DNA of 47,872 nucleotides from an uncultured Candidatus Saccharibacteria bacterium (GCA_964428705.1 CAYRYM010000001.1:1-47872); one strand, 5' to 3'; shown: positions 1,778-47,872, counted from the first letter of the stretch. Made by a program: numbers and translations. Notes: generated by a model from the sequence alone, not told the origin.

Positions 1778-1804
1778 AGCGGCTGATACTACAATAGTAC
1801 GCCC

Positions 1805-1844
1805 AAAAATAAAACCGCCCGGGTCGCTCAGCGACGCGGACGGG
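1805..1844 (-). terminator. intrinsic terminator after the 1847 ORF
   Basis: On the minus strand, directly after the TAG at 1847: CCGTCCG(C)GTCGC-TGA-GCGAC(C)CGGGCGG. This is about a 12-bp stem with one mismatch, followed by TTTTATTTTT. Confidence 0.55.
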
Positions 1845-1846
1845 TA

Positions 1847-2137
1847 CTACTCGGCGGCTTGTTTTGCAGCTTGGGGTCGGTTGGGGTCGGCAACCTCGGC
1901 GTAGTAGTGCCACATGTACTCGGGCAACTCGCCGTCTTCCGCCTCCAGAAAGCTGAGGCAGTCCAGTTCGGCCTGCTTCATGCCGTACTTTACCCCGTGT
2001 TTTTTGGCGTACCACTCAAGGCAGGTCCTAAACACGTGGATTTTGTTGCCCAACAGGTCCCCTACCCCCATATGTTTTTGGAGGGCGGCAAACAGCTGGT
2101 CTTCAGTGTAGCTCTTACCGTTGATGGCAATGTGCAT
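1847..2137 (-). CDS. small hypothetical protein (96 aa from the first ATG)
   Basis: The ORF-track entry 1847..2302 begins at a TTG that would overlap the flippase start head-to-head. The first ATG is at 2137 (MHIAINGKSY...). A terminator right after its stop supports a real gene. No known motif. Confidence 0.4.
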   Translation of the reverse strand: MHIAINGKSYTEDQLFAALQKHMGVGDLLGNKIHVFRTCLEWYAKKHGVKYGMKQAELDCLSFLEAEDGELPEYMWHYYAEVADPNRPQAAKQAAE

Positions 2138-2248
2138 TTGCGCCTCGCAAGGTTCATTATCTCTGCGGTTATAGTAGCCTAGCCGGACAGAGGGTTCAAC
2201 ATTCTCACACTGCCTTTGAAACTCGCAGTCCTTGGCCGGGGTTGTAGA

Positions 2249-7792: not shown

Positions 7793-8861
7793 GGCTTGAG
7801 ATAAAATCGGATACGGCTTTTGCGCGGTTGTCCCACGTATAACGCTCGACATCACGGCGGGCCCTGGCTCCCAGCCTCTCTGCGAGCATAGGGTCCTTGG
7901 CCAATGTCCGCAAGCCGTCCGCAAGCGCCCCAGGGTCGTCAGGAGAGACGAGCACGGCACTACTTTCATTTAGAACTTCCCGCACGGACGGGAGGTTGCT
8001 TGCGACAATGGGCCTGCCGGAAGCCATGTATTCAAACATCTTCATGGGCGACGTCGAGATTCGGGATATTTCTTCCTTGGCGGAGTTGGGCAGCACGAGC
8101 GCATCGGCAGCCTTCAAATACAGCGGGATATCGGCATGCGGCTTATGCCCTACCAGTATGACGTTTTGCACCGGAGGGTGGTGCGCGTTGAAGTAGTCTA
8201 TATAATGCGGCTTGCCGCCCACTATAACGATCTTGTGCGCATCGTCCATCAGCTTGCCCGCTTCGTACAAAACCCCGGCGCCTTTCCATGGCTCGTCTAT
8301 GGTGCCCGCGTACACCGCCAAAAAACCCTCCGGCAGGCCCAGAGACCGGCGGGCATCAGCCTTGCTAAGTGCGATATCAAACTGCGCGATGCTTACGGCG
8401 TCAGGGGCGACTAGTATCCGGCCCTCTGCATGCCCCTTCTCGACAAGTGCATTCTTGAGCCCTTGCGTTATAACGACAATACCGTCCAGATGTCTCAGAA
8501 GAAGGCGGTACCACCAGCCCGTGTGCCAGAAATGATGCAACTCGAAAAAAAACTTGACCGGCTGGCGAAACCAAAGACGGTTGTAGAGCATCATAAAAAA
8601 CAGCAACCTCTCCTCGCGGCAGTACATGTGGGTGACGCCCCGTGCCCCGGCCAAGTGCAAATACCTCCACGCCAAAAAAAAGCTGCGCCCACCCGACATC
8701 TCTACGACAGGAAAGTCGAGCGCGTCTCCTTTGTTCTGATGCAGGCCCAGGACAAACCCGTCTCCCAGGACACCGGCAAGTGCGCGTGACATGCTTACAA
8801 TCTGCAGGCGATTAGCCCTGGTTGACGGCAAGTCTATAGATGTAGCGTATAAAAGATTCAT
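7785..8861 (-). CDS. GT4 family glycosyltransferase
   Basis: C-terminal EEISRISTSPMKMFEYMASGRPIVASNLPSVREVL (EX7E motif). ATG 8861 gives a typical GT4 N-terminus, MNLLYATSIDLPSTRANRLQIV. Confidence 0.8.
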   Translation of the reverse strand: MNLLYATSIDLPSTRANRLQIVSMSRALAGVLGDGFVLGLHQNKGDALDFPVVEMSGGRSFFLAWRYLHLAGARGVTHMYCREERLLFFMMLYNRLWFRQPVKFFFELHHFWHTGWWYRLLLRHLDGIVVITQGLKNALVEKGHAEGRILVAPDAVSIAQFDIALSKADARRSLGLPEGFLAVYAGTIDEPWKGAGVLYEAGKLMDDAHKIVIVGGKPHYIDYFNAHHPPVQNVILVGHKPHADIPLYLKAADALVLPNSAKEEISRISTSPMKMFEYMASGRPIVASNLPSVREVLNESSAVLVSPDDPGALADGLRTLAKDPMLAERLGARARRDVERYTWDNRAKAVSDFISSHA

Positions 8862-8865
8862 GTTT

Positions 8866-10035
8866 TTATGAAATACCCAGCGCGTCCAGATACTGCGGGA
8901 TGATAACCTGTTCGTCAAACGCCAGTGAGCGCTCGCGTGCGGCCGCAGCGTAGTGCGCATGTTTGCGATCGTCGGTTAAAAGAGCGGCAAGCGCCTCGGT
9001 AAGCTCTTGTTCACCGTTGACCGGCACCAGAGCCCCATAGCGCGTCCACTCAACTCCCTCTTTGATGCGCAAGAAAGGATCGGACTCGGGAGCAAGAATC
9101 TCGCGCGGACCCGAGTCGCAATCAGCGGCAATTGCGGGGACACAGCATATCAGGGCCTCGATAAGCGCGTTGGGCAGACCCTCCCAGAGTGAGGACAGCA
9201 CGTAGACATCGGCTTTGGCAACATAGGCGTGCGGATTGTCCTGATAACCGGCAAAGTAGACACGCTCGGTAATACCCAAGTCTTGCGCGAGCGCCTCAAG
9301 CCGCTCGGCTTCCCTGCCTTGGCCCACCAATACGAGGCGGCTTGGCACTATACTTTGCAACTGCGCAAACGCACGCAAGAGCATGGGCAAGTTCTTTTGT
9401 TCGCGTAGACGACCAAACCAAGCAATTACTCTATCGGTACGCCCATTTGCAAGCCATGGATGCTGGATCGGCAATGCAGCAGCTCGGCGTATCTCGTCCA
9501 AGTCTTTGGGGTTAAATATGACCCTGATGCGCTCTTGGGGGACACCGCAAACCTTTGACACATCGCGCGCAACCCCTTGCGAGTTGGCGATGATGGCGTC
9601 GGCACGCTTATAGAGCCAGCGCACCAGAAACGAGGTGAGCAGGCGCTTCGTCTGATAGCGCTTGGACAGCTCGGAGAGCATGTTTCCGATGCGCAAAACG
9701 ATGCGCACCCGGACCCCGCTTAGCATGCGGGCCAAGAGTGCCAGCACCTGCGTATACTCGTCGAGCGCCATAAGCACGCCGGGCCGCTCGCGACGCATAT
9801 ACGAGATGAGAGGAAAGAGCGAAAACGCCATGCGGCCGCGGTCCAACGATATCACCCGTATCTTTTGGCTTACGCGCGACTCATACGGCCCCACGGGCTT
9901 GAGCACCAGCAGATCCACCATGTGCCCGCGCGCGGCGACGGCGTTTGCAATATCAATCACCTGCTTCTCTCCGCCGCCGGCGCGGTATGAAGATATGAAG
10001 AAAACCACCCTATGACTTAAAGAGTGATCTGGCAT
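8866..10035 (-). CDS. GT4 family glycosyltransferase
   Basis: VVFFISSYRAGGGEKQVIDIANAVAARGH at the N-terminus and SSLWEGLPNALIEALICCVPAIAADCDSGPREIL (EX7E) at the C-terminus. First ATG at 10035 (the listed start 10104 is TTG). Confidence 0.8.
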   Translation of the reverse strand: MPDHSLSHRVVFFISSYRAGGGEKQVIDIANAVAARGHMVDLLVLKPVGPYESRVSQKIRVISLDRGRMAFSLFPLISYMRRERPGVLMALDEYTQVLALLARMLSGVRVRIVLRIGNMLSELSKRYQTKRLLTSFLVRWLYKRADAIIANSQGVARDVSKVCGVPQERIRVIFNPKDLDEIRRAAALPIQHPWLANGRTDRVIAWFGRLREQKNLPMLLRAFAQLQSIVPSRLVLVGQGREAERLEALAQDLGITERVYFAGYQDNPHAYVAKADVYVLSSLWEGLPNALIEALICCVPAIAADCDSGPREILAPESDPFLRIKEGVEWTRYGALVPVNGEQELTEALAALLTDDRKHAHYAAAARERSLAFDEQVIIPQYLDALGIS

Positions 10036-10873
10036 AGGATTGTTGAACTCGACGCAGCCCCTTAAGTACCAGCCTCTTATCGGCTTTCTGTATGGAACTG
10101 ACAAATCCCCTCTCGCCCTCTATGCAGTAGTCGCTTACACGATAGGTATTTGAGAGAGATTTGATCTTTGAAGCGTACCCATGCTTGTCAAGGAAGTGCC
10201 GGAACGGAAGAGCGGTCATGTTCCAATTATTGAGAGATTTGAACGATTCAGGAGAACTAAATTCACCCTCCCGGCTAAGAGTAACGCCGGTCATGTCAAA
10301 TTTGCCGCCCATTTGCCCGAAGAGCTCTGTTTTTATAAATTCAAAAGAGCCGCGGATGTTGAGGGCGCGCCCCAGTATGCGCACTTTGACAAATTCACGC
10401 CAATTCTCTGCACTACCGGACGCGTTGGTAAGTATTACCCACGGCAGTTCGCCTTGTAGATTGTCCGTAAAAAGCCGATCGTTAAGCAGGAGATTATCGT
10501 CGTGAGTCATCAGGAGCATGTCGTAGTCCCGGTAGTCATGGCGCTCGAGCCACTGGTTTACATTGCCGTAGTCTCCTACTGTGTTTGGGCACAGTTCATA
10601 GGTCCAGCCAAGCTTCTCAATATCTTCGACCGATGCCACATCCTTGTACAGTACTTGGTCGAGCACCTCCGGGTAGCTCCAGCCGATGCGCGCAAGTCTC
10701 TCTTTTTTTTCTCCCACAGAGTAGCTGGGATCTCTGTGGGAAATGCAGAAAAGGTCCACGGTCCAGCCGTCCGGAACCTTTTGTGCGGCCATGGCTTTAA
10801 AAAAATGGAGAGGGAAATGCCATCCGCTGGCAACAACTGCAAGTCTTTTAGGTGACGTAGGAGTGTTTTCCAT
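10010..10873 (-). CDS. hypothetical protein, possible uncharacterised sugar-modifying enzyme
   Basis: 287-aa ORF with an ATG start. I recognise no family. It has a DxD-like MLLMTHDDNLLL segment. It is embedded between glycosyltransferase and methyltransferase genes in visibly A/T-richer DNA. Confidence 0.55.
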   Translation of the reverse strand: MENTPTSPKRLAVVASGWHFPLHFFKAMAAQKVPDGWTVDLFCISHRDPSYSVGEKKERLARIGWSYPEVLDQVLYKDVASVEDIEKLGWTYELCPNTVGDYGNVNQWLERHDYRDYDMLLMTHDDNLLLNDRLFTDNLQGELPWVILTNASGSAENWREFVKVRILGRALNIRGSFEFIKTELFGQMGGKFDMTGVTLSREGEFSSPESFKSLNNWNMTALPFRHFLDKHGYASKIKSLSNTYRVSDYCIEGERGFVSSIQKADKRLVLKGLRRVQQSYARSLFKS

Positions 10874-10895
10874 GCAAGTATTAAGACGCTTAAGG

Positions 10896-11516
10896 TCAGC
10901 CCATTATAAGCGGAATGTGGTGATACTCAAACTTGTCAGAGGGGTAGGTTTGCCGCATGTAGTCGCAGACATGCTTCCAATCCCATACTATTACCTTTTT
11001 CTTAGTTATCTGGTCCGCGTGCCTCATTGCTCTCTCCATACTCTCCTTATCGTCGATAAAGTACATAAATACAGCCCAAGCGTAAGAAACATCCCAGGCG
11101 TCCTTGTGTTCCTCTATCCATCCCGCGGGCGGATTGACCAGATCGAGCTGGAAGACCTTGTCACGCAGATCAGGCCTCACCTGTTGCAACAAATCATCAG
11201 CAACATCGCATCCTTGGATATTAAAATGTTTGGTCATATCTTCGAGGAATCGACCGTACCCGCAGCCGATATCTAAAACGCTCTCAGGCTCATAGGCGGC
11301 AACCTGCCTGTGAAGTCCCTCAGGGGTCGGGAAAAATCTCTGCAGCGTGACACTCTGCCTTTCCTTAAGGGTGTCCCTCTGCCCGCGTCCCATCTCATCA
11401 ATCCAGTGTTTTTTATATCCGGAACGGTGACGCGGCAACCTCTTATAGGCCCATTTTCTCGTGGGAGGAAACTCATATAAAGCACTAAGTGCAAGCAGTC
11501 GAAGTTTGCGGTACAT
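10896..11516 (-). CDS. class I SAM-dependent methyltransferase
   Basis: VLDIGCGYGRFLEDMTKHFNIQGCDVADDLL (motif I plus the acidic residue of motif II). 206 aa. Confidence 0.7.
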   Translation of the reverse strand: MYRKLRLLALSALYEFPPTRKWAYKRLPRHRSGYKKHWIDEMGRGQRDTLKERQSVTLQRFFPTPEGLHRQVAAYEPESVLDIGCGYGRFLEDMTKHFNIQGCDVADDLLQQVRPDLRDKVFQLDLVNPPAGWIEEHKDAWDVSYAWAVFMYFIDDKESMERAMRHADQITKKKVIVWDWKHVCDYMRQTYPSDKFEYHHIPLIMG

Positions 11517-26629: not shown

Positions 26630-28072
26630 CTACTCTATTGTAAACTCATCTTCTGATCCCCCGGTTACCGGCTTGCGCCGCACCACCATGACGCTCGCAA
26701 CGCCTAGGCCTACTATGCCGCCCAGGCCCGCAAACGCGGTCCACAAAGGCAGCACAGCGTTACTGCTTGCTGCCGACGCCGCAAGTGACGGTGGCGCCGG
26801 CTCTTCTGACATACCGGATGTTGATGATGCTTCAGGTGCCGCGGCGGCCGGTACATCTATATAGACTTCCGGAATAATTAAAGGAGCATCTGTTGCTGCG
26901 GGCCCAGCCGGCACAACTGCTGGTAATGCTTCAGATTTTGCGGCCGGCGCCGAGTATACGACTTGTGTGCCGTCCGGGTAGTAAAGTTTTGCGTCAGTAG
27001 CCTCAAATCCGAGCGTAGCCGCGGATATATTTATGGCCGAGCCCTCGAGCACCACCGAGTGCTCCGGGAGCACAAAGGTACTGTCGCCCTGCTTAACTAC
27101 CCACAACGAGAGGTCTAAGTCGCGACCGGAGTTGTTTTGTACGGACACGCCGCCCTGCGGAAGTGCCACAAGCGCAACCGAGGCCGGCTCTGCCGTTACC
27201 GTTATACGGCTTGTGGTGCGCAGGCTTGTGTTGGTTATTGTCAGCTGGACAGCGTACGTACCCGGGTAGCTAAAGTGATGCATCACCCACGGGCCCTCGG
27301 CAGTCGTGCCGTCGCCAAAGTTCCAGTAAAACTTGGCGTAGTTTATAACGTCCCTGTCGCGATCATAAGCGGTGGCGACAAACTTGGTATCGGCGCCGAC
27401 GATAACCACTCTGTCGCTGCCGGCCGATGCAAACACCTGCGGCAGGGGCGGCGCCACATAGCCGGGGTTAGAGGTTGATTTGCCCGAGGAGCCGGAGCCG
27501 CTCTCCTGCGCGGGCGGCGTGTAGCTCTCCGTCGCATTGTCGGCGCCCGGCGTGGGCAAGGCTTGGAGCCACGTGCTCGATGCCATCTGCAAACTTGTGC
27601 CATTGTCACTGCCTCCCTGGCTTGCGGTGTAAGTCACCGAGTCTAGTGTGCTGCCCGAGCCGTCTGCCAGCGAGACCGTTGTGCCGGTGTTGTTTAAAGT
27701 AAGAGATGCCTTGGCAACCGAGTAGCTGCCGGTGTACTCGCCCATAAATACAGACGGGTCGCTTGTAAGCACTAAATATCCGTGTGCGGGGATTGTCAGC
27801 GAGCCGCGCCCTACCCCGCCTTGAGGGTCCGTTATGGTGTGGTTGGAGCTATCAACTATGCGCCACGAGCCGGAGCCCGAGCCGCCCACCAACATGACAT
27901 CCTCTGAGCCGGAGTTATACAGCTCGACCCACTCGCGCCCGGCATCCGTGCCGGCGGGGTTGTACATAACCTCATTAATAGAGACCGCAGCATGGGCAGC
28001 CGCGGGCAATGCGCACGAAAATATAAAAATAAAGGAGAGTTTAACTGCTTGGCTCGCGATGCTTCTTGTCAT
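26630..28072 (-). CDS. surface protein with lamin-tail domain, PKD domain and C-terminal membrane anchor
   Basis: Signal peptide MTRSIASQAVKLSFIFIFSCALPAAAHA. LTD: VSINEVMYNPAGTDAGREWVELYNSG. PKD: FYWNFGDGTTAEGPWVMHHFSYPGTYAVQLTITN. C-terminal helix LPLWTAFAGLGGIVGLGVASVMVV followed by RRK. Confidence 0.75.
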   Translation of the reverse strand: MTRSIASQAVKLSFIFIFSCALPAAAHAAVSINEVMYNPAGTDAGREWVELYNSGSEDVMLVGGSGSGSWRIVDSSNHTITDPQGGVGRGSLTIPAHGYLVLTSDPSVFMGEYTGSYSVAKASLTLNNTGTTVSLADGSGSTLDSVTYTASQGGSDNGTSLQMASSTWLQALPTPGADNATESYTPPAQESGSGSSGKSTSNPGYVAPPLPQVFASAGSDRVVIVGADTKFVATAYDRDRDVINYAKFYWNFGDGTTAEGPWVMHHFSYPGTYAVQLTITNTSLRTTSRITVTAEPASVALVALPQGGVSVQNNSGRDLDLSLWVVKQGDSTFVLPEHSVVLEGSAINISAATLGFEATDAKLYYPDGTQVVYSAPAAKSEALPAVVPAGPAATDAPLIIPEVYIDVPAAAAPEASSTSGMSEEPAPPSLAASAASSNAVLPLWTAFAGLGGIVGLGVASVMVVRRKPVTGGSEDEFTIE

Positions 28073-29972
28073 GGTGCGACCCCTCTATATCCGGGTCGAC
28101 AGAGAGCATAGCATGTAGAGTCTCTTTGGGAAGGGAGGCGGGTTTTGACGAGCTTTTTGCGACTTTGTCCAGAGTATCCTTGAGGTCCGGGGAATGTTGT
28201 GGCGTTGAGTGTGCGTGCGGTTCCGCTTTAGGCGCCCCTGCCTTTGGAGCCTCGGGCTTTTTGGCGGTTACGGCCGCAAGGGCATCGCGCAGGCTTGTTG
28301 AGCCCTCGAGTGCGGGCTTTTCTACCTCCGGCTCAAGACGGGGCTTGGGCGGGGGTGCGGCGCGCACCGGTTGGCGGCGCGGCGCCGGAGCCTTTTCAAT
28401 ATGCGTATGGTTGTGGACATGCACCTGCGGTGCTGGCTGAGGCGCAGGCGCTTCTACCCTGACCGCTTGTATGATAGTGGGAGCAGGAGTAGGTGCCGGA
28501 GCGGGCACCGGCACAACAACGGTGGTGTGATGCGTAGGAGCCGGCGCGGGAGCTGCACGCGCTGGCGCCGGTGCCGCTGGGCGCGATGCAGCCGTCTTTG
28601 TCGCCGTATTGCCGTACTTGGGCTTAGGAGGCTCGACAACAAGCGGCTCCACGCTCTGCCACTTCTCTATCGCAGCCTCGACCTCGGGCCTAGGCTTGGC
28701 AAACTGGTCGCGCGAGCTCTGCAAAACTTTTTGCGTGTTGTCCTCTGGGGTGGCGTCAAACGGCGGCAGGGTTGTGGCGCTAAAGGGCGGGCTGCCCACG
28801 CCGTCTATCATAAGAGTCAGGTAAATCTGGGCAAACCCGAGGTTAACCAGGTCGGTCGCCTCAAACTGCGGCGCAAACACCGTCTCTAATGTCTCGGCGT
28901 CAAACGGCCCCACGCGGAAGGCCACCGTCGTGCCCACGTTGCCAAACACCGCATCGCGCACCTCCTCCTCCATCTGCTCGACATACTGGTGCGCGATGAT
29001 GAGGTTAAGCTTGTACTTGCGCGCCTCCGACAGGATGTCGGAGAATGACTCGTTGGCAAAGTTCTGGAACTCGTCCACGTAAAAGTAAAAGTTGGGCAGC
29101 GTCTGCATATTGGCGGAGCTGACATCGGCGCGGCTCATAGCCGCCAGGTATATCTTGGTGACCAGCATGGAGCCCAAGAGCGTCGCGTTGACCTCGCCTA
29201 CCCTGCCCTTGGAGAGGTTCATGATCAGTATCTTTTTTTGGTCCATGATCTCGCGGATATCAAACGAGCTCTTGGGCTGGCCCACAATGTTGCGTATAAG
29301 CGGGTTGGAGGTAAACTGGCCTATTTTGTTTTGTATGGCCGGGGTCGCGTCTTGCGTGTAGCGGTCGGTGTAGTTGGCAAACTCATCGACCCAGAAGCTT
29401 TTAACTATGGGGTCCTTAACGTTCTCGACCACCTTCTTGCGGAATGCTTTGTTGATGAGCATGCGGTTAACGTCGAGCAGCGTCGCACCCTCGTACTCAA
29501 GCAAAGCCAGCAATGTGTTGGAGAGTATGTACTCCATACGGGCTGACCATGCATCTACCCAAATCTTGCGGAAGGCCGAGAGCAGGCCCGAGACAACCAG
29601 GTGGCGCTTGTCGTACCCCACGTCCTCCATCACGTTAAAGGCCACAGGATACTCCATGTCAAACGGCGCAAAGTACACCACGTCTTTAATGCGATGCGCC
29701 GGCACGTACTCCATAATCCGGTCGGCGGTCGAGCCGTGCGGGTCTATAAACGCCATGCCCTCGCCGTTGCGGATGTCCTGTATGGCCATGTTCTCCAGCA
29801 AGGTGGACTTGCCCATGCCGGTCTTGCCGATGATGTACATGTGGCGCGCGCGGTCGCGGCGCTTGATGCCAAACGGCAGGGGTTTCCCGCGCGAGTTGGT
29901 CTCGGCAAAGTACGTTATCTTATTTGCGTCCTCAAGCATTGCTTTAATTGTACCACTGCCCGCTATAGACAC
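28041..29972 (-). CDS. VirD4/TraG/TraD-like P-loop ATPase (type IV coupling-protein family) with a Pro/Ala-rich tail
   Basis: Walker A IIGKTGMGKSTLLENM. Walker B FYFYVDEFQNF. SEARKYKLNLIIAHQYVEQM...GNVGTTVAFRV is typical of the TraG-D C-terminal region. No N-terminal TM helices. The last ~200 aa are low-complexity P/A. GTG start at 29972 (first ATG at 29939). Confidence 0.7.
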   Translation of the reverse strand: MSIAGSGTIKAMLEDANKITYFAETNSRGKPLPFGIKRRDRARHMYIIGKTGMGKSTLLENMAIQDIRNGEGMAFIDPHGSTADRIMEYVPAHRIKDVVYFAPFDMEYPVAFNVMEDVGYDKRHLVVSGLLSAFRKIWVDAWSARMEYILSNTLLALLEYEGATLLDVNRMLINKAFRKKVVENVKDPIVKSFWVDEFANYTDRYTQDATPAIQNKIGQFTSNPLIRNIVGQPKSSFDIREIMDQKKILIMNLSKGRVGEVNATLLGSMLVTKIYLAAMSRADVSSANMQTLPNFYFYVDEFQNFANESFSDILSEARKYKLNLIIAHQYVEQMEEEVRDAVFGNVGTTVAFRVGPFDAETLETVFAPQFEATDLVNLGFAQIYLTLMIDGVGSPPFSATTLPPFDATPEDNTQKVLQSSRDQFAKPRPEVEAAIEKWQSVEPLVVEPPKPKYGNTATKTAASRPAAPAPARAAPAPAPTHHTTVVVPVPAPAPTPAPTIIQAVRVEAPAPQPAPQVHVHNHTHIEKAPAPRRQPVRAAPPPKPRLEPEVEKPALEGSTSLRDALAAVTAKKPEAPKAGAPKAEPHAHSTPQHSPDLKDTLDKVAKSSSKPASLPKETLHAMLSVDPDIEGSHHDKKHREPSS

Positions 29973-40505: not shown

Positions 40506-40638
40506 GTGACGTTACATTAACTCTTCATCCCTGAAGCCCCGCTGAAGCGCGACCAGATTTGATACAGCACCCTAACGCAAAAAATGGCTCATGTCAAGCA
40601 TCAGCCTGTGGACCAAAGACAGGAACCCATTTTAGTTG

Positions 40639-40646
40639 TATATTCT
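40639..40646 (+). promoter_or_regulatory. candidate -10 region (TATATTCT) for tRNA-Leu
   Basis: GTATATTCTAATTCTC immediately precedes the mature 5' end at 40654. Confidence 0.3.
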
Positions 40647-40653
40647 AATTCTC

Positions 40654-40735
40654 GGTCACGTGGCGGAATTGGTATACGCGTACGTCTCAGAAGCGTATGG
40701 GGCAACCCGTGGGAGTTCAAGTCTCCCCGTGACCA
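40654..40735 (+). tRNA. tRNA-Leu(CAG): tRNA-Leu, anticodon CAG, class II (long variable arm), CCA not encoded
   Basis: Hand fold: acceptor GGTCACG/CGTGACC, D arm GCG...CGC with a GG loop. Anticodon stem TACGT/GCGTA with loop CTCAGAA. Variable arm TGGGGCAACCCGTG. T arm GGGAG-TTCAAGT-CTCCC. Discriminator A, followed by CAA. Confidence 0.85.
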
Positions 40736-40744
40736 CAAAAGACA

Positions 40745-40770
40745 GAAAACCTGCCCTGCGGCAGGTTTTC
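40745..40770 (+). terminator. hairpin after the tRNA (terminator-like)
   Basis: GAAAACCTGCC-CTGC-GGCAGGTTTTC, an 11-bp perfect stem whose 3' arm ends in TTTTC. Confidence 0.5.
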
Positions 40771-40793
40771 TGCTGAGTGGTGGCCGGAGCGAT

Positions 40794-40857
40794 GATTCGC
40801 CAGCAGGCGAATCCGCGAGGCAGGGTCGTGCGGCCAAATGCGCAACGGCGCATTTGG
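40794..40857. other. two further perfect hairpins (REP-like)
   Basis: GATTCGCC-AGCA-GGCGAATC (40794-40813) and CCAAATGCGC-AACG-GCGCATTTGG (40834-40857). Neither is followed by a T-run. Confidence 0.5.
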
Positions 40858-40875
40858 AACGCCTGACCACCGGAC

Positions 40876-40899
40876 AAAAAGCGGCTATGGCCGCTTTTT
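40876..40899 (-). terminator. intrinsic terminator of the fibre/DUF2207 operon
   Basis: AAAAAGCGGC-TATG-GCCGCTTTTT. The stop codon TAG (40885-40887) lies at the stem-loop junction. On the minus strand the stem is followed by TTTTT. Confidence 0.65.
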
Positions 40900-41679
40900 G
40901 AATTTAAATACAAGAGCGCCCGCGGCAACGCACACTAACAAAAGCGCTGCCACCAGCGGCACTATACCGTAGCTCAGCACCAGGGTTGTTATAAAAAAGC
41001 CGCGCACGTGCGGGTGGACCACGCCCTTTGGCCAGCGTGCCTCAAACGAGACTCCCCCGCCCGGCTGTATGTCCTCTATCTCAAAGCGCAGCGTGCGGGG
41101 GTCGGGGTGCAGCACGCGGCCCGGTGCGGAGGTAAGCTTGCCGTCAATCTCTGCGGCGGCAGGCAGCACGACATCAACGCTGCTTGAGGCAACAGACACC
41201 GCGTAGCGCGAAAACAGCGACCACGCCAGCGCGTCATGGTCCGCCTCAAACGCGACCACGCCACGCAGGGTGTAGCGCAGCACCCAGGTCTTTGTCGTGT
41301 CCGCGGCGTCGTAGTACCACTGCGCCTTAAAGTACCCGTCATCGTTTATCCACGCATAGGTGCCGTAATATTGCTTATCGTTGGGCAGGTCGGGAAAGTT
41401 TTTAATCTGGCGCAGCACCTCGCCGGTGTCGGCGTCCACAACCTCAACATTGCTCACCGCGGCAGAGCCCACCGATACGCCGCGCCATAGCGAGTGGTAC
41501 GTTCCCTCGTAGCTGATTGTGATGCGCTCCTCTACCTTAACTGAGCTGTCGCGTTGTATCTCGTAGCGCGCGCTAATGTTTTGGTACTCGTAGGAAATCG
41601 CATCAGGCGATGTTGCCGCCAGGGCCGCAGGGGCGCTACTCATCGCCCCCAACATAAGCAGTGCTGCAGCAAGTCTCAT
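40885..41679 (-). CDS. DUF2207-like membrane protein (signal peptide, beta-rich ectodomain, C-terminal TM region)
   Basis: [21 protein letters not shown] signal. [30 protein letters not shown] resembles the DUF2207 N-terminal pattern. C-terminal [31 protein letters not shown]. The ATG overlaps the upstream TGA (ATGA). Confidence 0.6.
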
Positions 41680-44600
41680 AGAGTTTCAACTGCCTCACCG
41701 GCCTCCGGTGCAACCGGGAAGGCCGCCGGCTCGGGCTCGGGCGCAGGTTGCTCTGCTTGTGGCTCCGGCTCGGGTTCCCCCTCCGGTTCCGGTGCAGGCT
41801 CCAGCACAGGAGTCGGCTCAGGTTCCGGCTCTGGAGCAGGTTCAGGAGTAGGAGTTGTTGACGTCGAGTTGTCTGTACCACCCTCCCCTACCACCTCGGG
41901 CGTTGATGTTGCCTCATTATCCGCAACCTCTTGCGTGGTTGTTGCCTGCACACCGGCATCCGCATCTTCTTCAAACGGATTGTCGAACTCTTCTGTAGTT
42001 GTAGCGGCGTCCTCAGGCACGAGTGGTGTCGAGGTTGCCGTGCACTCGCCACTTAAGTACACCAGCTCGCCGGCCTGCACCTGCACGCAGTACGGCTCGT
42101 GCGTCTGCGTGTCGTACAGGGTGATGCCCGCCGGCTGCTCGCTGCTGCCCACGGTAAACTGCGAGGCTATTAAGTTTTTAATAAGCGTAAACTCCTGGGA
42201 TATATAGACGCCCAAGTCGGCGAGCTTGGCTACAAACGCGCCAAACAGCGCATCCACAAACTGCGCGGTCGAGCTTGCGACCGCGGCGCTTGTCGAGGCG
42301 ATAGAGCCTGTTGTGCTTGCAATGCGGCCGCTAAGCGCGCCGAACATCGCGCCCACAAAGTCCACAGGCATGGTGGAGGTGCCGACGTCGAGACCAAGCA
42401 GGCCTTGGGCAATGGAGTTTATAGACACCCCCGCCTGCAGGTCGAGGAATATCATGACCGTAGCCTGGCTACCGCCGCTGTATGCCTCGAGCGCAATACC
42501 AACCGACGGCTCGAACTGCGTTGCGCGCCGGCCGACACCCGGAGTTTCCGAGAGCGTGATGCGGTCGCCAATCTGGATTGCACCGCCCGTAAGGTTGACG
42601 CGCACCGGCACGCGGCCCGAGAGCGCCACAGGCCTGCTACCTGCCGCGTTGTCCGGGTTAAGCCCCAAGACCATACCCGGCGCGGTCGAGATAACGCCCG
42701 CCAATGGCGAGGTGTCTGTGCGCGCAGCGCGCTTAACGTGTATGTCGCTCAGGACATCAAACGAGACTATCTCGCCCGGGCTAAGCGTTGCGTCAGTAGT
42801 GGGGTATGTCTCGGCCAAGTCGGCGCCCGGGGTGGCATAGGTGTACTCGTACACCACCACAAACCCCCCGCCTCCGCCGTTGCCGCCCGGGCCGCCGTAT
42901 GATGAGCCGCCGCAGAAATCTTCACTACAATCTTCTCCTTCCTCATACTGATATCCGCCTTTGCCGCCAAACGCCCCGTGAGAGCCGCCCGCAGCGCCAC
43001 CGCCACCGCCTCCTCCGCCGGCACCCGCATCTACCTGTTCTACTCCGACACTTCTGCCGCCGCCGCTGCCTCCACTCATACCAATAGTCCCGCCACCTCC
43101 GCCTGCTCCGCCGCCTGCTCCGGACACGCTATACAAGCCATAGGCGCCCGCACCACCATGTCCGCCAGAGATACCGGCCGTACCCGCGCCGCCGCCGCCG
43201 CCACCACCTCCGCCGCCGTTTAGGTTGGAGCCGTTGGTCCCCGCTACACCATCACCGCCGGCACCGCCATTGCCGCCCCCGACACCCATGGCGCCACCAC
43301 CACCGCCGCCACCGCCGCCTCCCTGGCCGTTGCTTGTTGTGCCCCCGCTGCCGCCGTTGCCGCCGTTGAAGCCGCCTCCGCCTCCTCCGCCACCCGGGTC
43401 GTTGGATGAGGAGGAACCTCCCGCGCCGCCATTGCCGCCGTTGGTCGTGCCGCCGGCAGTGCCGTTAGTGCCGCCGTTGGTGCCGGTACCCAGGGCACCG
43501 CCCGAGAGCCCGGCGCCGCCGCCGCCACCACCTCCACCAGAACTTGTTGCGCCACTGCCACCGGCCGCACCAGCGCCGCCGGCCGAGCCCGTCGCAGCAC
43601 TCCCGGTAGCACCCGCACCGCTGCTGCCGGCACCACCTCCGCCGCCGCCAGCACCTCCGGTGCTGTTTGAGGCACCGGCAGGCCCCCCGTTGTTGCCGTC
43701 TCCATCAGGGTCGTCGGCCCCGCCGCCGCCCGATCCTCCCGCCATGCCGGCTGCAGACGCGCCGTCACCGGAGTCTGTGTTGGTAGCGCCCGCGCCCGAG
43801 CCACCACCGCCTCCGCCGCCCGTAGTGCCGGAGCCAGCGGCGCCATCGCCCTCGCCGCCGATGGTGGCGCCGTTTTGGTCGTTGCCCGATGCGGCTCCGC
43901 CGCCGCCGCCCGCGCCGCCGCTGGTGCCGGAGGCAGCAGCGGCGGCGCCACCCGTTGAGATAGTGGTGTTGCTGGTCTCGTCCCATCCGTCTCCTCCGCC
44001 ACCGCCGCCTCCTCCACCGCCCGACGAGCCGGATGCGCTTGCCCCTACTGTGCCATTGCCTCCTGCACCCCGGGTGGTGCTAAAGCTTGTGCCCTCGTCG
44101 CCGTCCATTCCGCCTCCGCCTCCGCCGCCGCCACCCACGCCAACTACTACCGCCTCGGTGCCGCTTATGCTTGCGGCCTGCACCACCTTTTGCGAGTAGC
44201 CGCCCGCACCGCCGCCGCAGGTATACGTGTTGTCGCTAAAACCATCGCTGGTTGTGCGCGTAGACGTGGAGGGAGACGCACCATGAGCAAATGTTGTCGC
44301 AAAAGGCGCGAGCGAGTCATGCAATAGTTGCTGATTAACGGCCGAGTCGAGAACTATCATGTTGCGCTTAAAGCCGCTCTGGCCGGCCAAATTAACATCG
44401 CCGCTGCTGCCCGTGCCGCCGCTGCCGGGGACGCAGTAGGTTGTCGAGGCATTGGTGCCGGCGCCTCCGCCCGCCGCCGAGAGGTGCGCGCCAAACGACG
44501 ACGCTGTGCCGGCCGCGCCGTCGCCGCCGATGCGCATTGCGGATTCGCCGTCACCCGGGTTGGCGTCAAAGCCGCCCGTCATGCCGCTGCCGCCTCCGCC

Positions 44601-47600
44601 GCCGCCCCATGTCTCGACAACAACGTAGGCCAGGTCGGAGGGCTTGGTGTATGTCTGGTCACTCGTGTACGTCCGTATCGCGGTGAGCTTGGCCACCTGG
44701 CCAATGCACGTGCCGCCTACGCTAAAACAACCGCCGGTCAGATTGATGCCGTTTGCCGCAGTCGAGGTTGCCGAGGTTGAGGTCATGTTAAACGTTGTGG
44801 CCTCGATGCCGCCGGCAAAGCTTGAGGTGCCGGCGCCCTGCACGGCAAGCGTACCGGTTGTTGTTGCGCCGCCCGATATTGTGAGCCCGCCGGTCTGCGT
44901 ACCATCGCCTATTGTTGATGACGCAAATGCGGTCAGCCCCGCATTAAACTGCGTCAGCGTGGAGGTCGAGTTGCCGGTGCCCGCAAACGGGTATGCCGCG
45001 GCAACCTGGGCCGGCGTGGCGTAGTCGCTGCCCGCCACCGCTGCCACAACCAAGCCGTCTGTCGAAGTTTTAAGCAGGTTGCCGGACGCAATGCCGGAGA
45101 TGACAAGGTCGGTGGTCGAGGCGCTGCCAAAGTACCCGATGCCCGAGACCGTAAGCGCGGTGGTCGATGCGTACGATATGGTCGCACTGCCGGCAGTCAG
45201 TCCGCCGTTAAACGCAATTGATGTGGTGGTGGCGTTAGACGGGAACGGGTAGGCAAAGGAGGAGCCGCCGCACGACTGCGCCGACACAAGGCCCGAGGAG
45301 TTGGTCGTAAGGCAGTCGCCGGCGCCTGCGCCCAAGCCTGATATGACAAGTGCGGTTGTGGAGGCGGTGCCGTTAACGTCGAGCTTCGCTGTCGGGGCGT
45401 TGGTGCCGATGCCGACATTGCCGCCTTTTTGAAGTGTGAGTCTGTCCGCAGTATCCCAAAACCGCATGTCTTCTCCATTCAAATACGTGAGCCATTCTAC
45501 GGAGTTGTTCGTCGTGCTGTAGAGCTCAAAGAGCGTAGAATCCGAAGCTCCGCTAAATCTGGCCGGGCCCGTCACATTGAGTGCAGCTCCGGATGCGGGT
45601 GCGCCGCCAATACCCACACCATTGCCGTTTATTGTCATCTTCAACCCTCCCGTGTCGTTTGTCTCATTGTACGATGATGCCGCATAAAAATACTGCACCG
45701 TAGCATCAGGCACATTCCAGCCCCCACCGCCAAAGTACAGATAACGCCCCGCACCATCGTCCCAGCCAGAAAGAGCAGTGAACGGCTCGTTTGCCTTGTT
45801 ATAGCGTCCGATGGCGTACAGCCCGCCGTTTGAGGCAGTCGCACCGCTCGTGTCGCCAAGTACAAATGCCGTGTAAATATTTGAAGTATTGAAAGCGTTC
45901 GTCTGGCGCGTCACGTTCAAGGCTCCGGCTACTTGGAGTTTGCCAAGGGGGCTCGCCGTCCCAACCCCGACATTGCCCGCAAAGTAGGCCTGGCCGGTCG
46001 TTGTCGCACCTCCCGATATGGTGAGGCCGGTCGCGGCACCGCCGGCACCGATGGTCGAGCTGGCATACGCGGTCAGCCCCGCGTTGAACGCGAGCAAGGT
46101 TGTGGTGGCGTTAGACGGGAACGGGTAGGCAAATGATGAGCCTCCCGATGGCCACGCCGACTGGCAGTCGCCGGATATGCAGATGGTGGTTGCGGACAGC
46201 GCCGTTGTGGACGCGTACGGGAATGTGGAGGCGGCTGTGGTGGTCGCAGTAAAGTATGCGCCCACCACCTCGCCTGCTACAGAGAGTTTTGCGTACGGCG
46301 AGGTGGTGCCAACGCCTACATTGCCGTCGCTGGCTATGCGCAGGCGCTCGCCGGTCGCAACATCCGTGCCGGTATAAAAGCGGATATCCCCAAAAGCAGA
46401 GGAAAGATCGATTCCGTTAAGGCCGGCGAGTATAACCCGGTTCTGAAGCAGCGTCTCAAAATAATTCGTGCCGGCAAGCACAAGGGCTCCGCCAACGTCA
46501 TCGTCATTCTCAAGATAAATTGATGCGGCAGCTGTGGACCCGCTGTTAAAGTTCCTGACATACAGCCCGGAGGGGCTGTCGGCATTGGTGGAAACGTCGA
46601 GTGCGGCCCCAGGACTCATGGTACCGATGCCGACGTTGCTCGCAAAGTAAGCTGTGCCCGTGGTGGTCGCACCACCGGAGATGGTGAGGCCGGTCGCGGC
46701 ACCGCCGGCACCGATGGTCGAGCTGGCATACGCGGTCAGCCCCGCGTTGAACGCGAGCAAGGTTGTGGTGGCGTTAGACGGGAACGGATACCCTGCAATG
46801 CTCGGAGTGCCGGTGAGTTGACTGTACGGCAGTGACAGGTTTGGCAGTGTGATGATCGAGGCGATTGATGAGGTGCCTGCCAGCTGGGTGATAAAGCGTG
46901 GGTCAAACAACGAGTTGAAGGTAGAGGTGTAGACGCCGTCGGTGACGGTGCCTGCGTTGCCGCTTATGTCTCCTGTCACGTTGGCTACAATGCCGCCGCT
47001 AAAGGTGATCTGCGTTGAGGTGGCATTAGACGGGAACGGGTAGGCAAATGATGAGCCTCCCGATGGCCACGCCGACTGGCAGTCGCCGGATATGCAGATG
47101 GTGGTTGCGGACAGCGCCGTTGTGGACGCGTACGGGAATGTGGAGGCGGCTGTGGTCGTGGCCGTAAAGTACGCCGCAACTGCCTCGCCTACTACCGACA
47201 GTTTTGCATACGGCGAGGTGGTGCCTATGCCTACATTGCCGGCTGCAGTTATCCTTACCCGCTCTGCCTCCGAACCGTTGTCCGTATAAAACGTTATAAC
47301 GCCGTTGAGCTGGCGGTTGTCAAAGCGGAACTCATCGGCTCGCGCACCTATTTGCATGCCGTCTGTGTCGTTTTGGTTAATGTTCCGGAATTTGAAAACC
47401 GCATTACTGGAATCATTGGACTCGAACAACGCAACAACAGAACCCACCGGCTCGTACACGCGCAGCGCCATGCTCGAAGGATAGCCTCCTATGCCCACCT
47501 TGCCGCCAACGTACGCATCAAGCGTAGTTGTCGCGTTGCCGGATATAACAAGGCCGGCGCTACCGTTGCCGATTGTCGATGACGCATACGCAGTAAGTCC

Positions 47601-47872
47601 GCCGTTGAACTGTGTCAGGGTCGAGGTGGAGTTGCCGGTGCCTGCAAACGGGTAGCCTGCGATAGACGGCGCACCACTCAGCTGTGAGTACGGTAGCGAC
47701 AGGTTAGGCAAGGTGATGATGCTCGAGATCGAGGAGGTGCCCGCAAGCTGGGTGATGAAGCGAGGGTCAAACAATGAGTTGAAGGTAGAGGTGTAGACGC
47801 CATCGGTGACGGTGCCTGCGTTGCCTGTGACAGAAGCGACAATGGCGTTAGAGAAGGTGTTGGTGCCCGAGA
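41676..47872 (-). CDS. giant tail-fibre-like surface protein, 5' end beyond the window (>2,060 codons in the window)
   Basis: The listed ORF 41676..47774 starts at a TTG. Hand translation of 47775-47872 stays open (SGTNTFSNAIVASVTGNAGTVTDGVYTSTFNS) and repeats an internal segment, so the gene continues past the edge. It contains recurrent GNVGIGTTSPYAKLSV and YPFPSNATTT motifs, a polyglycine domain and an ADLAETY...GVISTAPGMVLG block. TGA stop at 41676. Confidence 0.85.
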   Translation of the reverse strand, partial: SGTNTFSNAIVASVTGNAGTVTDGVYTSTFNSLFDPRFITQLAGTSSISSIITLPNLSLPYSQLSGAPSIAGYPFAGTGNSTSTLTQFNGGLTAYASSTIGNGSAGLVISGNATTTLDAYVGGKVGIGGYPSSMALRVYEPVGSVVALFESNDSSNAVFKFRNINQNDTDGMQIGARADEFRFDNRQLNGVITFYTDNGSEAERVRITAAGNVGIGTTSPYAKLSVVGEAVAAYFTATTTAASTFPYASTTALSATTICISGDCQSAWPSGGSSFAYPFPSNATSTQITFSGGIVANVTGDISGNAGTVTDGVYTSTFNSLFDPRFITQLAGTSSIASIITLPNLSLPYSQLTGTPSIAGYPFPSNATTTLLAFNAGLTAYASSTIGAGGAATGLTISGGATTTGTAYFASNVGIGTMSPGAALDVSTNADSPSGLYVRNFNSGSTAAASIYLENDDDVGGALVLAGTNYFETLLQNRVILAGLNGIDLSSAFGDIRFYTGTDVATGERLRIASDGNVGVGTTSPYAKLSVAGEVVGAYFTATTTAASTFPYASTTALSATTICISGDCQSAWPSGGSSFAYPFPSNATTTLLAFNAGLTAYASSTIGAGGAATGLTISGGATTTGQAYFAGNVGVGTASPLGKLQVAGALNVTRQTNAFNTSNIYTAFVLGDTSGATASNGGLYAIGRYNKANEPFTALSGWDDGAGRYLYFGGGGWNVPDATVQYFYAASSYNETNDTGGLKMTINGNGVGIGGAPASGAALNVTGPARFSGASDSTLFELYSTTNNSVEWLTYLNGEDMRFWDTADRLTLQKGGNVGIGTNAPTAKLDVNGTASTTALVISGLGAGAGDCLTTNSSGLVSAQSCGGSSFAYPFPSNATTTSIAFNGGLTAGSATISYASTTALTVSGIGYFGSASTTDLVISGIASGNLLKTSTDGLVVAAVAGSDYATPAQVAAAYPFAGTGNSTSTLTQFNAGLTAFASSTIGDGTQTGGLTISGGATTTGTLAVQGAGTSSFAGGIEATTFNMTSTSATSTAANGINLTGGCFSVGGTCIGQVAKLTAIRTYTSDQTYTKPSDLAYVVVETWGGGGGGSGMTGGFDANPGDGESAMRIGGDGAAGTASSFGAHLSAAGGGAGTNASTTYCVPGSGGTGSSGDVNLAGQSGFKRNMIVLDSAVNQQLLHDSLAPFATTFAHGASPSTSTRTTSDGFSDNTYTCGGGAGGYSQKVVQAASISGTEAVVVGVGGGGGGGGGMDGDEGTSFSTTRGAGGNGTVGASASGSSGGGGGGGGGGDGWDETSNTTISTGGAAAAASGTSGGAGGGGGAASGNDQNGATIGGEGDGAAGSGTTGGGGGGGSGAGATNTDSGDGASAAGMAGGSGGGGADDPDGDGNNGGPAGASNSTGGAGGGGGGAGSSGAGATGSAATGSAGGAGAAGGSGATSSGGGGGGGGAGLSGGALGTGTNGGTNGTAGGTTNGGNGGAGGSSSSNDPGGGGGGGGFNGGNGGSGGTTSNGQGGGGGGGGGGAMGVGGGNGGAGGDGVAGTNGSNLNGGGGGGGGGGAGTAGISGGHGGAGAYGLYSVSGAGGGAGGGGGTIGMSGGSGGGRSVGVEQVDAGAGGGGGGGGAAGGSHGAFGGKGGYQYEEGEDCSEDFCGGSSYGGPGGNGGGGGFVVVYEYTYATPGADLAETYPTTDATLSPGEIVSFDVLSDIHVKRAARTDTSPLAGVISTAPGMVLGLNPDNAAGSRPVALSGRVPVRVNLTGGAIQIGDRITLSETPGVGRRATQFEPSVGIALEAYSGGSQATVMIFLDLQAGVSINSIAQGLLGLDVGTSTMPVDFVGAMFGALSGRIASTTGSIASTSAAVASSTAQFVDALFGAFVAKLADLGVYISQEFTLIKNLIASQFTVGSSEQPAGITLYDTQTHEPYCVQVQAGELVYLSGECTATSTPLVPEDAATTTEEFDNPFEEDADAGVQATTTQEVADNEATSTPEVVGEGGTDNSTSTTPTPEPAPEPEPEPTPVLEPAPEPEGEPEPEPQAEQPAPEPEPAAFPVAPEAGEAVETL
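42864..44609 (-). repeat. GGN-codon low-complexity tract (polyglycine coding region)
   Basis: The plus strand is dominated by GCC/ACC/CCG triplets. It encodes at least seven uninterrupted runs of 8-10 Gly plus many shorter ones. It also creates the spurious antisense poly-Pro ORF 43225..44199. Confidence 0.9.
46018..46124. repeat. 107-bp exact intragenic direct repeat, copy 1 (partner 46681..46787)
   Basis: Base-by-base hand alignment is identical. Offset 663 bp (221 codons). Confidence 0.9.
46111..46241. repeat. 131-bp exact intragenic direct repeat, copy 1 (partner 47026..47156)
   Basis: Base-by-base hand alignment is identical. Offset 915 bp (305 codons). The identical N-termini of spurious plus ORFs 46177.. 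and 47092.. (MQMVVADSAVVDAYGNVEAAVVVAVKYA) also reflect it. Confidence 0.9.
46681..46787. repeat. 107-bp exact intragenic direct repeat, copy 2 (partner 46018..46124)
   Basis: Identical to copy 1. It diverges immediately after GGGAACGG. Confidence 0.9.
46816..46961. repeat. imperfect ~146-bp intragenic repeat (partner 47680..47825, offset 864 bp)
   Basis: Hand alignment shows scattered mismatches. The longest exact blocks are GAGTTGAAGGTAGAGGTGTAGACGCC (26 nt) and TCGGTGACGGTGCCTGCGTTGCC (23 nt). Confidence 0.7.
47026..47156. repeat. 131-bp exact intragenic direct repeat, copy 2 (partner 46111..46241)
   Basis: Identical to copy 1. Confidence 0.9.

Follow-up and report, generated by a model that had tools for sequence, protein, structure and literature searches.

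How Patescibacteria, the Candidate Phyla Radiation (CPR), find and hold their hosts is largely an open question, and a giant gene at the end of a contig from an uncultured Candidatus Saccharibacteria bacterium (GCA_964428705.1, CAYRYM010000001.1:1-47872) raises it in a concrete form: is a protein built like a phage tail fibre the relic of a phage, or a fibre that the cell makes for its own use? We analysed the whole stretch (47,872 bp; hereafter the window) and consider it probable that the gene encodes a membrane-anchored, modular, phage-fibre-like surface fibre, carried on the chromosome of an Adlerbacteria-like Patescibacteria bacterium and acting by the mechanism proposed below. The locus is a testable candidate for a cell-made, phage-style receptor-binding fibre. 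In reviews and in cultivated cases, host attachment of CPR bacteria is ascribed to type IV pili, type IV secretion systems and unnamed 'adhesins' (PMC11665869, PMC10633639), and our literature search found no paper linking Patescibacteria with tail-fibre, glycine-rich-tip or intramolecular-chaperone proteins.

Extent and layout of the fibre gene

An initial annotation, made by a model from the sequence alone, had described a single open reading frame (ORF) of more than 2,060 codons, still open at the edge, and had divided it into five parts. We find this ORF on the minus strand, which the annotation had left unstated, at 41679-47870, with 2,064 residues free of stops and a TGA stop codon at 41676-41678; the 3' fragment of the fibre gene as a whole spans 41676-47872 (2,064 codons plus stop), and all five parts are present in its translation. 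The features of the fibre given below lie on the same strand. The window is the entire contig, and the 5' end of the gene is lost at the contig end; a complete orthologue, L161, has 1,926 amino acids (aa). The only early start candidates are TTG codons, at codons 33 and 54. The coding region extends upstream of the contig end, because residues 5-75 are 91.5% identical to an internal repeat at residues 289-363, and the ORF must continue past the contig since residues 1-72 (47655-47870; NAGTVTDGVYTSTFNSLFDPRF...LPYSQL) are the tail of a further upstream repeat unit. The start of the fragment (residues 10-100 aligned) is also 85% identical to a segment about 1,270 residues into the homologue L162. 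The present ORF would be the C-terminal four-fifths (or less) of the full fibre. All 14 Cys of the fragment fall into seven close pairs (259/264, 564/569, 853/867, 1048/1055, 1146/1218, 1648/1653, and 1928/1943), a pattern consistent with disulfides in an exported protein.

Chaperone core, predicted cleavage junction and C-terminal extension

Residues 1683-1811 (42438-42824) form a gp12-like (peptidase G2-type) intramolecular chaperone core with a beta-tulip-like fold, as assigned from a family profile, an AlphaFold2 (AF2) model, Foldseek and BFVD. The block reads ADLAETY...GVISTAPG...GRVPVRV...GDRITLSETPG. A search with residues 1676-1960 returned 40 clusters, mostly from Patescibacteria, whose alignment has the conserved core D-x-A-E-x-Y-P...G-V-I-S-x-x-P-G...PVALSGRVPVKV...GDRI...PGVG-KA...VGIALE. 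The profile of this family matches phage phi29 gp12 in the PDB (6QZ9, E=1.4e-4; 3GQH, the released C-terminal fragment, 1e-3), and its alignment to gp12 residues 675-742 places DLAE on D692-F-A-E695, with which the 3GQH chain begins; a single-sequence phmmer search of the C-terminal block against the PDB gave no match, and it takes the family profile to reveal the gp12 link. In the AF2 model, the core has a predicted local distance difference test score (pLDDT) above 90, and the best Foldseek matches of the model in the PDB are 3GQH (E=1.3e-5) and 3SUC (pre-mature gp12, 2e-5), followed by beta-tulip decoration proteins; the best match in BFVD is a viral 'Preneck appendage protein' (E=1.8e-12, root-mean-square deviation 1.8 Å, 35% identity).

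The predicted autocleavage motif, D1684-L-A-E1687 (42810-42821), lies in the junction PGADLAETY, with the cut expected between A1683 and D1684, and D-x-A-E is kept in 159 of the 159 carriers extracted, 53-84 residues before GRVP. Xiang and co-workers reportedly described D692 and E695 as the catalytic pair of gp12 in 2009. Mature phi29 gp12* ends at residue 691 (PMC6542822), and the C-terminal domain of gp12 is an autochaperone, which is needed for trimer folding and is then removed (PMC3357383, PMC4690869). By this homology, the fibre is probably self-processed at A1683|D1684. The initial annotation had compared this block with auto-cleaving chaperones of 'G2/S74' type; the first half of that comparison stands by profile, by fold and by D-x-A-E at the cleavage junction, and the second does not. 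An S74-type chaperone is rejected, there being no PF13884 match on the protein or its segments and a junction PGADLAETY instead of SDxxxK. Scanned segment by segment, as the same annotation had proposed, the fibre gave a sub-threshold match to Gly_rich_2 on the N-terminal part of the tip and none to the S74 and Peptidase_G2 models, the latter even up to E=10 on the isolated chaperone segment.

The chaperone domain is widespread. With the 129-aa core alignment as the query for locus searches, we found at least 589 loci in one-genome-per-species contigs, of which the best 80 are almost all from Patescibacteria (Uhr-, Kaiser-, Adler- and Zambryskibacteria, Paceibacterota, Saccharibacteria, and others), and, at 30-45% identity, a further 107 on viral contigs of IMG/VR. 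An exhaustive HMMER search returned at least 12,725 representative clusters at E<=1e-3, of which 3,317 remain at E<=1e-10; giant proteins, of up to 6,814 aa, head the matches, and there are several fibre paralogues per genome. Carriers on viral contigs end 60-66 residues past GRVP, the domain closing collagen-like or beta-helical tail fibres, and the GenBank phages that have it are mainly PA5oct-like jumbo phages in which the protein is annotated as 'virion structural protein'. The CPR carriers (1,000 to more than 4,300 aa) run on for 180-600+ residues, which here comprise a helical linker, a two-Cys hairpin and a low-complexity tail. One 'viral' contig alone, L081 (IMGVR_UViG_3300025839_000054), has a carrier with the CPR-type layout (8249-10903; GNVGIGT repeats plus a GITIFD..C..C extension); its neighbours match only glycosyltransferases and, weakly, a 'phage stabilization protein', and the contig may be that of a CPR phage or CPR DNA wrongly classed as viral.

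In the window, the CPR-specific extension starts with the helical linker, residues 1812-1912 (42135-42437), in which AF2 places helices at low to medium confidence and which is absent in the phage versions. A small beta domain with two conserved Cys follows at residues 1913-1945 (42036-42134), with the pattern GITLYD..T..PYC....G......GxC (GITLYD...PYC...GEC at residues 1915-1943), a pLDDT of 83-89 and 91% identity to L161. The last part, residues 1946-2064 (41679-42035), is an acidic Pro/Glu/Thr-rich tail that ends in ...ETL, has 36% Pro and 26% Glu in residues 2001-2050 and is the least conserved part (67.5% identical to L161). Anchoring through this tail in the manner of PEP-CTERM or LPXTG proteins is rejected, as the C-terminus has no hydrophobic segment (hydropathy peaks at 1.49, in the linker).

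These features bear on the first of the rival explanations, in which the surface fibre is the same and the gp12-like domain is retained as a permanent trimerisation cap, the CPR extension being a functional distal end or a spacer; we consider this unlikely. It would account for an extension that is conserved across the CPR carriers and absent in phages and for a Cys hairpin that is 91% conserved. Release of the phi29 chaperone was, as Xiang and co-workers reportedly found in 2009, ATP-dependent, and such a release would be unworkable outside the cell, where there is no ATP. Retention also has a precedent in the P22 tailspike, which keeps a C-terminal autochaperone-like domain (PMC3357383). Nevertheless, the invariance of D-x-A-E in all 159 carriers, every CPR one included, is hard to explain without a catalytic role, and in phage Pam3, the tip of which is capped by a separate trimeric chaperone during folding (PMC9608196), the receptor-binding loops lie under the chaperone, which has to come off.

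Stalk and tip

The N-terminal half of the fragment is a stalk of beta-helix units, in which YPF occurs six times and G[NK]VG[IV]G five times (plus one SNVGIG). Three long units, residues 73-276, 361-581, and 582-873, share 55-62% mutual identity. The first (47043-47654; YPF...GKVGIG...GNVGIGTTSPYAKLSV...CISGDC) is 62% identical to the second and is followed by a short connector unit, residues 277-360 (46791-47042), that is 86% identical to its counterpart in L161. The second long unit (46128-46790) is of the type found in mosaic adhesive trimer (MAT) fibres, which a bacterial predator encodes itself and displays on its surface as homotrimers with a beta-helix stalk and swappable tips, with or without an S74 chaperone (Caulton et al., 2024; PMC10769870): by phmmer against the PDB it matches 8OND (Bd2133, E=1.3e-8), 8OML (Bd1334, 1.3e-4) and 8OL4 (Bd2439, 8e-4), and for an AF2 monomer model of it (pLDDT 70) the top 14 Foldseek matches in the PDB are all MAT fibres, followed by phage triple-beta-helix fibres. 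The third (45252-46127), with a larger insert and mostly absent from L161, matches 8OND (E=1.4e-5) and 8OJN (Bd3182, 5.5e-3). Short units, residues 874-1054 (44709-45251), recognised by motifs and alignment, run into the tip and end in ...NGINLTGGCFSVGGTC. Among at least 383 sequence relatives of the stalk, many end in Peptidase_S74 (PF13884), and some of these, from Paceibacterota, are named 'tail fiber domain-containing protein' by NCBI. The tail-fibre-like modules of the initial annotation are thus borne out both by the names of relatives and by matches to four Bdellovibrio MAT crystal structures. N-x-T sequons recur in the YPFPSNATTT motif of the fibre, and glycosylation is conceivable.

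The glycine-rich domain, put initially at roughly 590 codons, covers residues 1055-1682, that is 628 aa with 39% Gly (48% in residues 1251-1660) and 14 runs of at least four Gly. Its beta-strand-bearing N-terminal part, residues 1055-1250 (44121-44708; TAIRTYT...YVVVETWGGGGGG...), is of the TNF-like/Gly_rich_2 type: over its first 50 residues the tip shares 63% identity (E=3e-19) with the beginning of the Gly_rich_2 domain of L004, which passes the Pfam gathering threshold (GA), seven of 12 aligned CPR glycine-rich segments pass Gly_rich_2 (best 1.8e-19), and a profile of the tip family, with the window segment included, matches gp24 of Pam3 (7YFW/7YPX, E=4.5e-8) and the phage 'tail wing brush' protein 9D93. 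BLASTP of the entire domain against the relative P0015 was uninformative because of composition. In Pam3, the TNF-like, glycine-rich domain is the distal receptor-binding tip, in which GGGGxGG motifs stack into a lattice whose end loops vary (PMC9608196). The tip closes with a strand at residues 1661-1682 (42825-42890; GGFVVVYEYTYATPG), the last strand being 1668-1677, and its end, ...VVIYEYT...GADLAE, is shared with bona fide Gly_rich_2 members. The junction ...G(I/V)(V/I)(I/V)xYxYT...G-x-D-x-A-E is common to about 20 of the 79 closest CPR carriers and the remainder have other domains there; the tips preceding the chaperone are mosaic across genomes.

Between the N-terminal part and the closing strand lies an expansion of 410 Gly/Ala/Ser-rich residues, 1251-1660 (42891-44120), with 48% Gly and a poly-Gly run every 24-48 aa. 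This expansion is 91% identical to that of L161 and aligns with it without gaps, against 82-86% identity in the stalk. Such gap-free identity shows purifying selection on the glycine-rich region, and it suggests that the stretch folds into an ordered structure under selection and is no floppy linker.

A structural component of the envelope, such as a surface-layer-like coat, a spacer or a matrix fibre with no specific partner to recognise, could also be very large, repetitive and rich in Ser, Thr, Gly and Ala, as the fibre is, and could also adjoin a 24-kb surface-glycan cluster; a tip that is not hypervariable between close orthologues points the same way. We regard this explanation as distinctly unlikely. 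Each of the module types is used for recognition by phages and predators, and the mosaic tips, the several paralogues per genome and the exchange of the fibre in L025 fit a diversification of binding. At the same chromosomal position, L025 has a fibre (3-4847) that is only 36-50% identical to that of the window and is of another tip/chaperone subtype (...ISVYATSS..GNDYAETFPV), with Band7 and Mpl neighbours that are 91% and 79% identical; to judge from these identities, the fibre cassette has evidently been exchanged at a fixed chromosomal site.

N-terminal anchor in orthologues

A metagenome scan with the first 272 residues of the fibre found L161, from a different metagenome, and L162. L161 is a complete, syntenic orthologue whose aligned parts are 82-91% identical to the window fibre; it is without most of the window unit 582-873, and residues 1-276 of the window have diverged from it, so that stalk modules are gained and lost between close relatives. 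At the start of L161 are two HTH_17 domains (PF12728, E=3.3e-10; HTH, helix-turn-helix), followed by a hydrophobic helix near residues 160-185 after Arg-Arg and by a YLPLAGGTLSG-type stalk start, the region from HTH_17 to the transmembrane (TM) helix lying at 669-1250. The same start is found in L162 (about 6260-6700), which has at least 1,435 aa up to the end of its contig, and a start with HTH and then TM occurs in five further CPR carriers (L005, L014, L021, L052, and L057); other CPR carriers start with a signal peptide or a TM helix and then a YQG(R/K)L domain. The fusion of one or two HTH_17 domains, a DNA-binding, cytoplasmic fold of the excisionase type, to an extracellular fibre is an odd combination. 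Display by the cell itself, which the initial annotation had put forward, would fit both the TM anchor of the orthologues and the close pairing of all 14 Cys.

The same N-terminus invites an explanation in which the fibre is the sensor arm of a membrane-tethered regulator, a ToxR-like or MyRF-like one-component system in which contact at the tip controls the HTH_17 domains. HTH_17 is joined to the fibre through one TM helix in L161, L162 and the five other CPR carriers, and there is a precedent in MyRF, a membrane transcription factor with a phage-type self-cleaving trimerisation domain (PMC8326128). If it were true, host contact or chaperone-driven trimerisation would be reported to the chromosome, a 'touch-to-transcription' route in bacteria without most of the classical signalling, and the fibres that recur across Patescibacteria would be host-range determinants of episymbionts. 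We find it very doubtful, however: many carriers of the chaperone domain start with a plain signal peptide or TM helix and no HTH, so that the family can do without it; neither a target operator nor a signalling domain is evident; and it is speculative that force could travel to a single TM helix along a fibre of 1,700 aa or more.

Chromosomal context and integrity of the locus

That the gene is an ordinary tail fibre of a prophage, a tailocin or a phage remnant is scarcely plausible, even though all of its domains have phage homologues, it lies near a tRNA-Leu gene, and the contig ends inside it and leaves its own upstream side unseen. We scanned all sizeable ORFs of the contig with Pfam and those without a Pfam match with PHROGs, and across the 47.9 kb these scans found no capsid, terminase, portal, baseplate, integrase or other PHROG match, as the initial annotation had also stated for phage genes in the 47 kb. 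The gene order fibre-(DUF2207)-tRNA-Leu-fasciclin-Band7-Mpl is common to the window, L001, L025, and L161, four related genomes in which the fibre keeps its position among housekeeping genes and the tRNA. Upstream of the fibre of the close relative L162, where adjacent phage structural genes would have spoken for a prophage, there are instead SecA, a CcdA/DsbD-type protein (1456-2193), a holin-family membrane protein with four TM segments, Obg, GatB and a small HTH_17 protein, and no virion gene. The N-terminal TM anchor with HTH is unlike a virion attachment domain, and phage versions stop right after the chaperone core, which the window fibre does not.

Codon usage is native: the GC content at third codon positions (GC3) of the fibre gene is 0.64-0.75 (0.50 in the short acidic tail) against 0.64-0.79 in its neighbours, and the raised overall GC of the gene is due to Gly and Ala codons. 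Recent horizontal acquisition is rejected on this equality of GC3. With synteny, the housekeeping genes of L162 and native codon usage in agreement, the cellular, non-prophage origin put forward in the initial annotation holds. Of its two suggestions for how the likeness to phage fibres arose, domesticated or convergent, the latter is dropped, since there is sequence homology in each domain. Its assignment to a host-dependent bacterium agrees with the relatives of the neighbouring genes and of the fibre: the Mpl ligase is 81% identical to a protein of a Candidatus Adlerbacteria metagenome-assembled genome (MAG), its other named relatives are Patescibacteria, and the relatives of the fibre are overwhelmingly Patescibacteria.

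An assembly chimera or collapsed repeat is hardly credible at all: the gene is repetitive and of low complexity, and the contigs of the window, L001, L025 and L162 all break within it, but there is no frameshift or internal stop in 6.2 kb, the relatives P0001 and P0002 are 92% and 87% identical to the C-terminal part, and an artefact is ruled out by the complete L161 from a different metagenome, which is collinear and has a gap-free, 91%-identical glycine-rich region. The DNA repeats within the gene are just 72-88% identical to one another, so the stalk repeats are diverged copies and a simple repeat collapse is unlikely. The initial annotation had itself named a chimera with internal stops as the outcome that would overturn its proposal; the ORF is free of stops and collinear with L161. 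As four independent contigs of related organisms end inside the fibre gene, repetitive genes of this kind break short-read assemblies, and the family is truncated and undercounted in MAGs.

Directly downstream of the fibre is a gene for a DUF2207 membrane protein (40885-41679, minus strand; Pfam DUF2207 4e-13), with a signal peptide and a C-terminal TM helix. Its ATG overlaps the TGA of the fibre gene (ATGA, 4 nt), as in L161; the pair is kept in L001 and L161 and absent in L025, and the DUF2207 protein may serve the fibre as an accessory or as a partner in anchoring. The tRNA-Leu(CAG) gene (40654-40736, plus strand) lies between the fasciclin gene and the DUF2207 gene and is no sign of a recent island insertion, because it is conserved beside the locus in L001, L025, and L161. 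A 105-aa 'ORF' at 40584-40901 over the tRNA is spurious. In L001, at the same chromosomal position, the C-terminal part of the fibre is 92% identical to that of the window.

Elsewhere on the contig, a surface-glycan cluster of about 24 kb (approximately 2200-26300) encodes a Wzx flippase, at least six GT4 glycosyltransferases, GT9, RmlC, a DegT aminotransferase, C-methyltransferases and UDP-glucose dehydrogenase, and further genes encode MurA, MurB, MurI, an Mpl-type Mur ligase, an RsmI-like methylase, an SPFH protein and a fasciclin protein. A VirD4/TrwB-like coupling ATPase is encoded beside a secreted protein with LTD and PKD domains (26630-29972, minus strand), and a 40%-identical VirD4 homologue is found a few kb from another fibre carrier, L031.

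Proposed mechanism and points against it

On the surface-fibre reading, the lost N-terminal segment would hold the protein in the membrane with two cytoplasmic HTH_17 domains and one TM helix, and the remainder (more than 1,700 residues) would be exported. The MAT-type beta-helix units would intertwine as a homotrimer to form the stalk, and the distal end would be a TNF-like and glycine-rich tip of the receptor-binding type, enlarged by the conserved 410-aa expansion. The gp12-like autochaperone would emerge last and trimerise first, setting the register of tip and stalk, and would then probably cut itself off between A1683 and D1684, which would release a fragment of 381 aa and expose the tip. 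The fibre could then bind a surface structure of another cell, which would presumably be the host of this bacterium with its reduced genome. Of these elements, the domain homologies, the invariant D-x-A-E junction, the anchor of the orthologues, the chromosomal synteny and the selection on the glycine-rich region are observed here, and trimer formation, cleavage, exposure and the binding target are inferred. By rough estimate, the fibre would be about 60-120 nm long and its exported part at least about 60 nm, because the 370 aa of Bd2133 span about 142 Å.

Several observations weigh against this reading. The window fibre is without its N-terminus, and the anchor is taken from orthologues. No Pfam, NCBIfam or PHROGs model scored above threshold on the whole protein or its segments, and the scans with curated hidden Markov models gave only weak matches, to Phage_cement_2 (E=0.023) and Trypan_PARP (compositional, on the acidic Pro/Glu tail); Pfam Gly_rich_2 (PF21722) on the N-terminal part of the tip reached 20.1 bits (E=7e-4) and, with a GA of 24.3, is sub-threshold, and the window tip segment alone gave no match to the Pam3 structure. 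By sequence, gp12 matches the chaperone over its first approximately 70 residues only (E=1e-4 to 1e-3), and the template-modelling score (TM-score) of the chaperone is a modest 0.55 on the target. For the second stalk unit, the TM-scores are about 0.2 with a model of moderate quality, which gives qualitative support only; such low scores are expected, because the model is a monomer and the trimer it is set against is intertwined. The tip has changed less than the stalk between the window and L161, which at this distance is not how a fast-evolving receptor-binding site would behave. The conserved extension of about 250 aa past the chaperone core, of which phage versions have none, hints that the C-terminal piece may have its own function and is perhaps not simply discarded, and the reported ATP dependence of release in phi29 points in the same direction. 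As for biology, single MAT deletions in Bdellovibrio barely alter predation, and the adhesive role is not firmly proven for the model family; a free-living mode of life is possible for some Parcubacteria (PMC12625730).

Significance and comparison with known systems

The locus carries the MAT concept beyond proteobacterial predators and into the largest radiation of uncultivated bacteria, and the distribution of these domains documents that phages and ultra-small bacteria have many fibre modules in common. A large class of giant surface proteins is annotated as 'hypothetical' because no Pfam, NCBIfam or PHROG model recognises the chaperone domain.

The closest known systems are the MAT fibres (Bd2133, Bd1334, Bd2439, and Bd3182). 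They too are cell-encoded and mosaic, with homologous stalk units, exchangeable tips, TNF-like ones among them, and a presentation end that is conserved; a self-cleaving chaperone of phage type closes many members, genomes have several paralogues, and Bdellovibrio likewise lives off other bacteria. MAT proteins, however, have about 1,000 aa, a signal peptide and a conserved beta-rich N-domain of about 130 aa, sit on the outer surface of a diderm and, where they have a chaperone, have S74 (SDxxxK), whereas the window fibre has more than 2,064 aa (relatives up to 6,814), an HTH_17 and TM start in its orthologues, a gp12/G2-like chaperone with a 250-aa extension and an expanded glycine-rich tip. 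The MAT layout, with the signal peptide directly before the beta-rich domain of about 130 aa, is not that of L161 and L162, which begin with HTH_17 and TM. The MAT-bearing predators in the paper and its supplement belong to Oligoflexia, Alphaproteobacteria, the PVC group, Omnitrophica, and Myxococcota, and Patescibacteria are not among them (PMC10769870).

With phi29 gp12 and Peptidase_G2 (3GQH, 3SUC, and 6QZ9), the fibre shares the C-terminal position of the chaperone on a beta-structured fibre (trimeric in gp12) and D-x-x-E at the cut junction; it differs in having Ala at P1 (Ser in gp12) and the 250-aa extension, and the chaperone would act outside the cell on a membrane-anchored protein and not in the cytoplasm on a virion part. 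Xiang and co-workers are said to have suggested in 2009 that bacterial adhesins might mature like gp12. The tip resembles Pam3 gp24, the related S16 gp38 adhesin and Gly_rich_2 proteins in its distal position on the fibre and in beta-sandwich loops with GGGGxGG-type motifs, but the glycine-rich domain of Pam3 has 125 aa and 12 motifs and depends on a separate chaperone, gp25, whereas that of the window has 628 aa, with the 410-aa expansion, and its chaperone in cis. The fibres of IMG/VR and PA5oct-like phages share the D-x-A-E...GRVP...GD...ALE domain at 30-45% identity and, unlike the window fibre, stop 60-66 residues past GRVP, with no Cys hairpin, acidic tail or membrane anchor. Eukaryotic MyRF (PMC8326128) also joins a DNA-binding domain, a TM helix and a phage-type trimerising, self-cleaving chaperone in one polypeptide, but it is without a fibre stalk or tip, and the likeness is conceptual only. 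In essence, cell-borne, phage-like mosaic fibres are a kind already known since the MAT work of 2024; the novelty lies in the joining of an anchor of HTH_17 and TM helix, a stalk of MAT type, a vastly enlarged glycine-rich tip and a gp12-type chaperone with a CPR-specific extension, and in the scale of the unannotated family.

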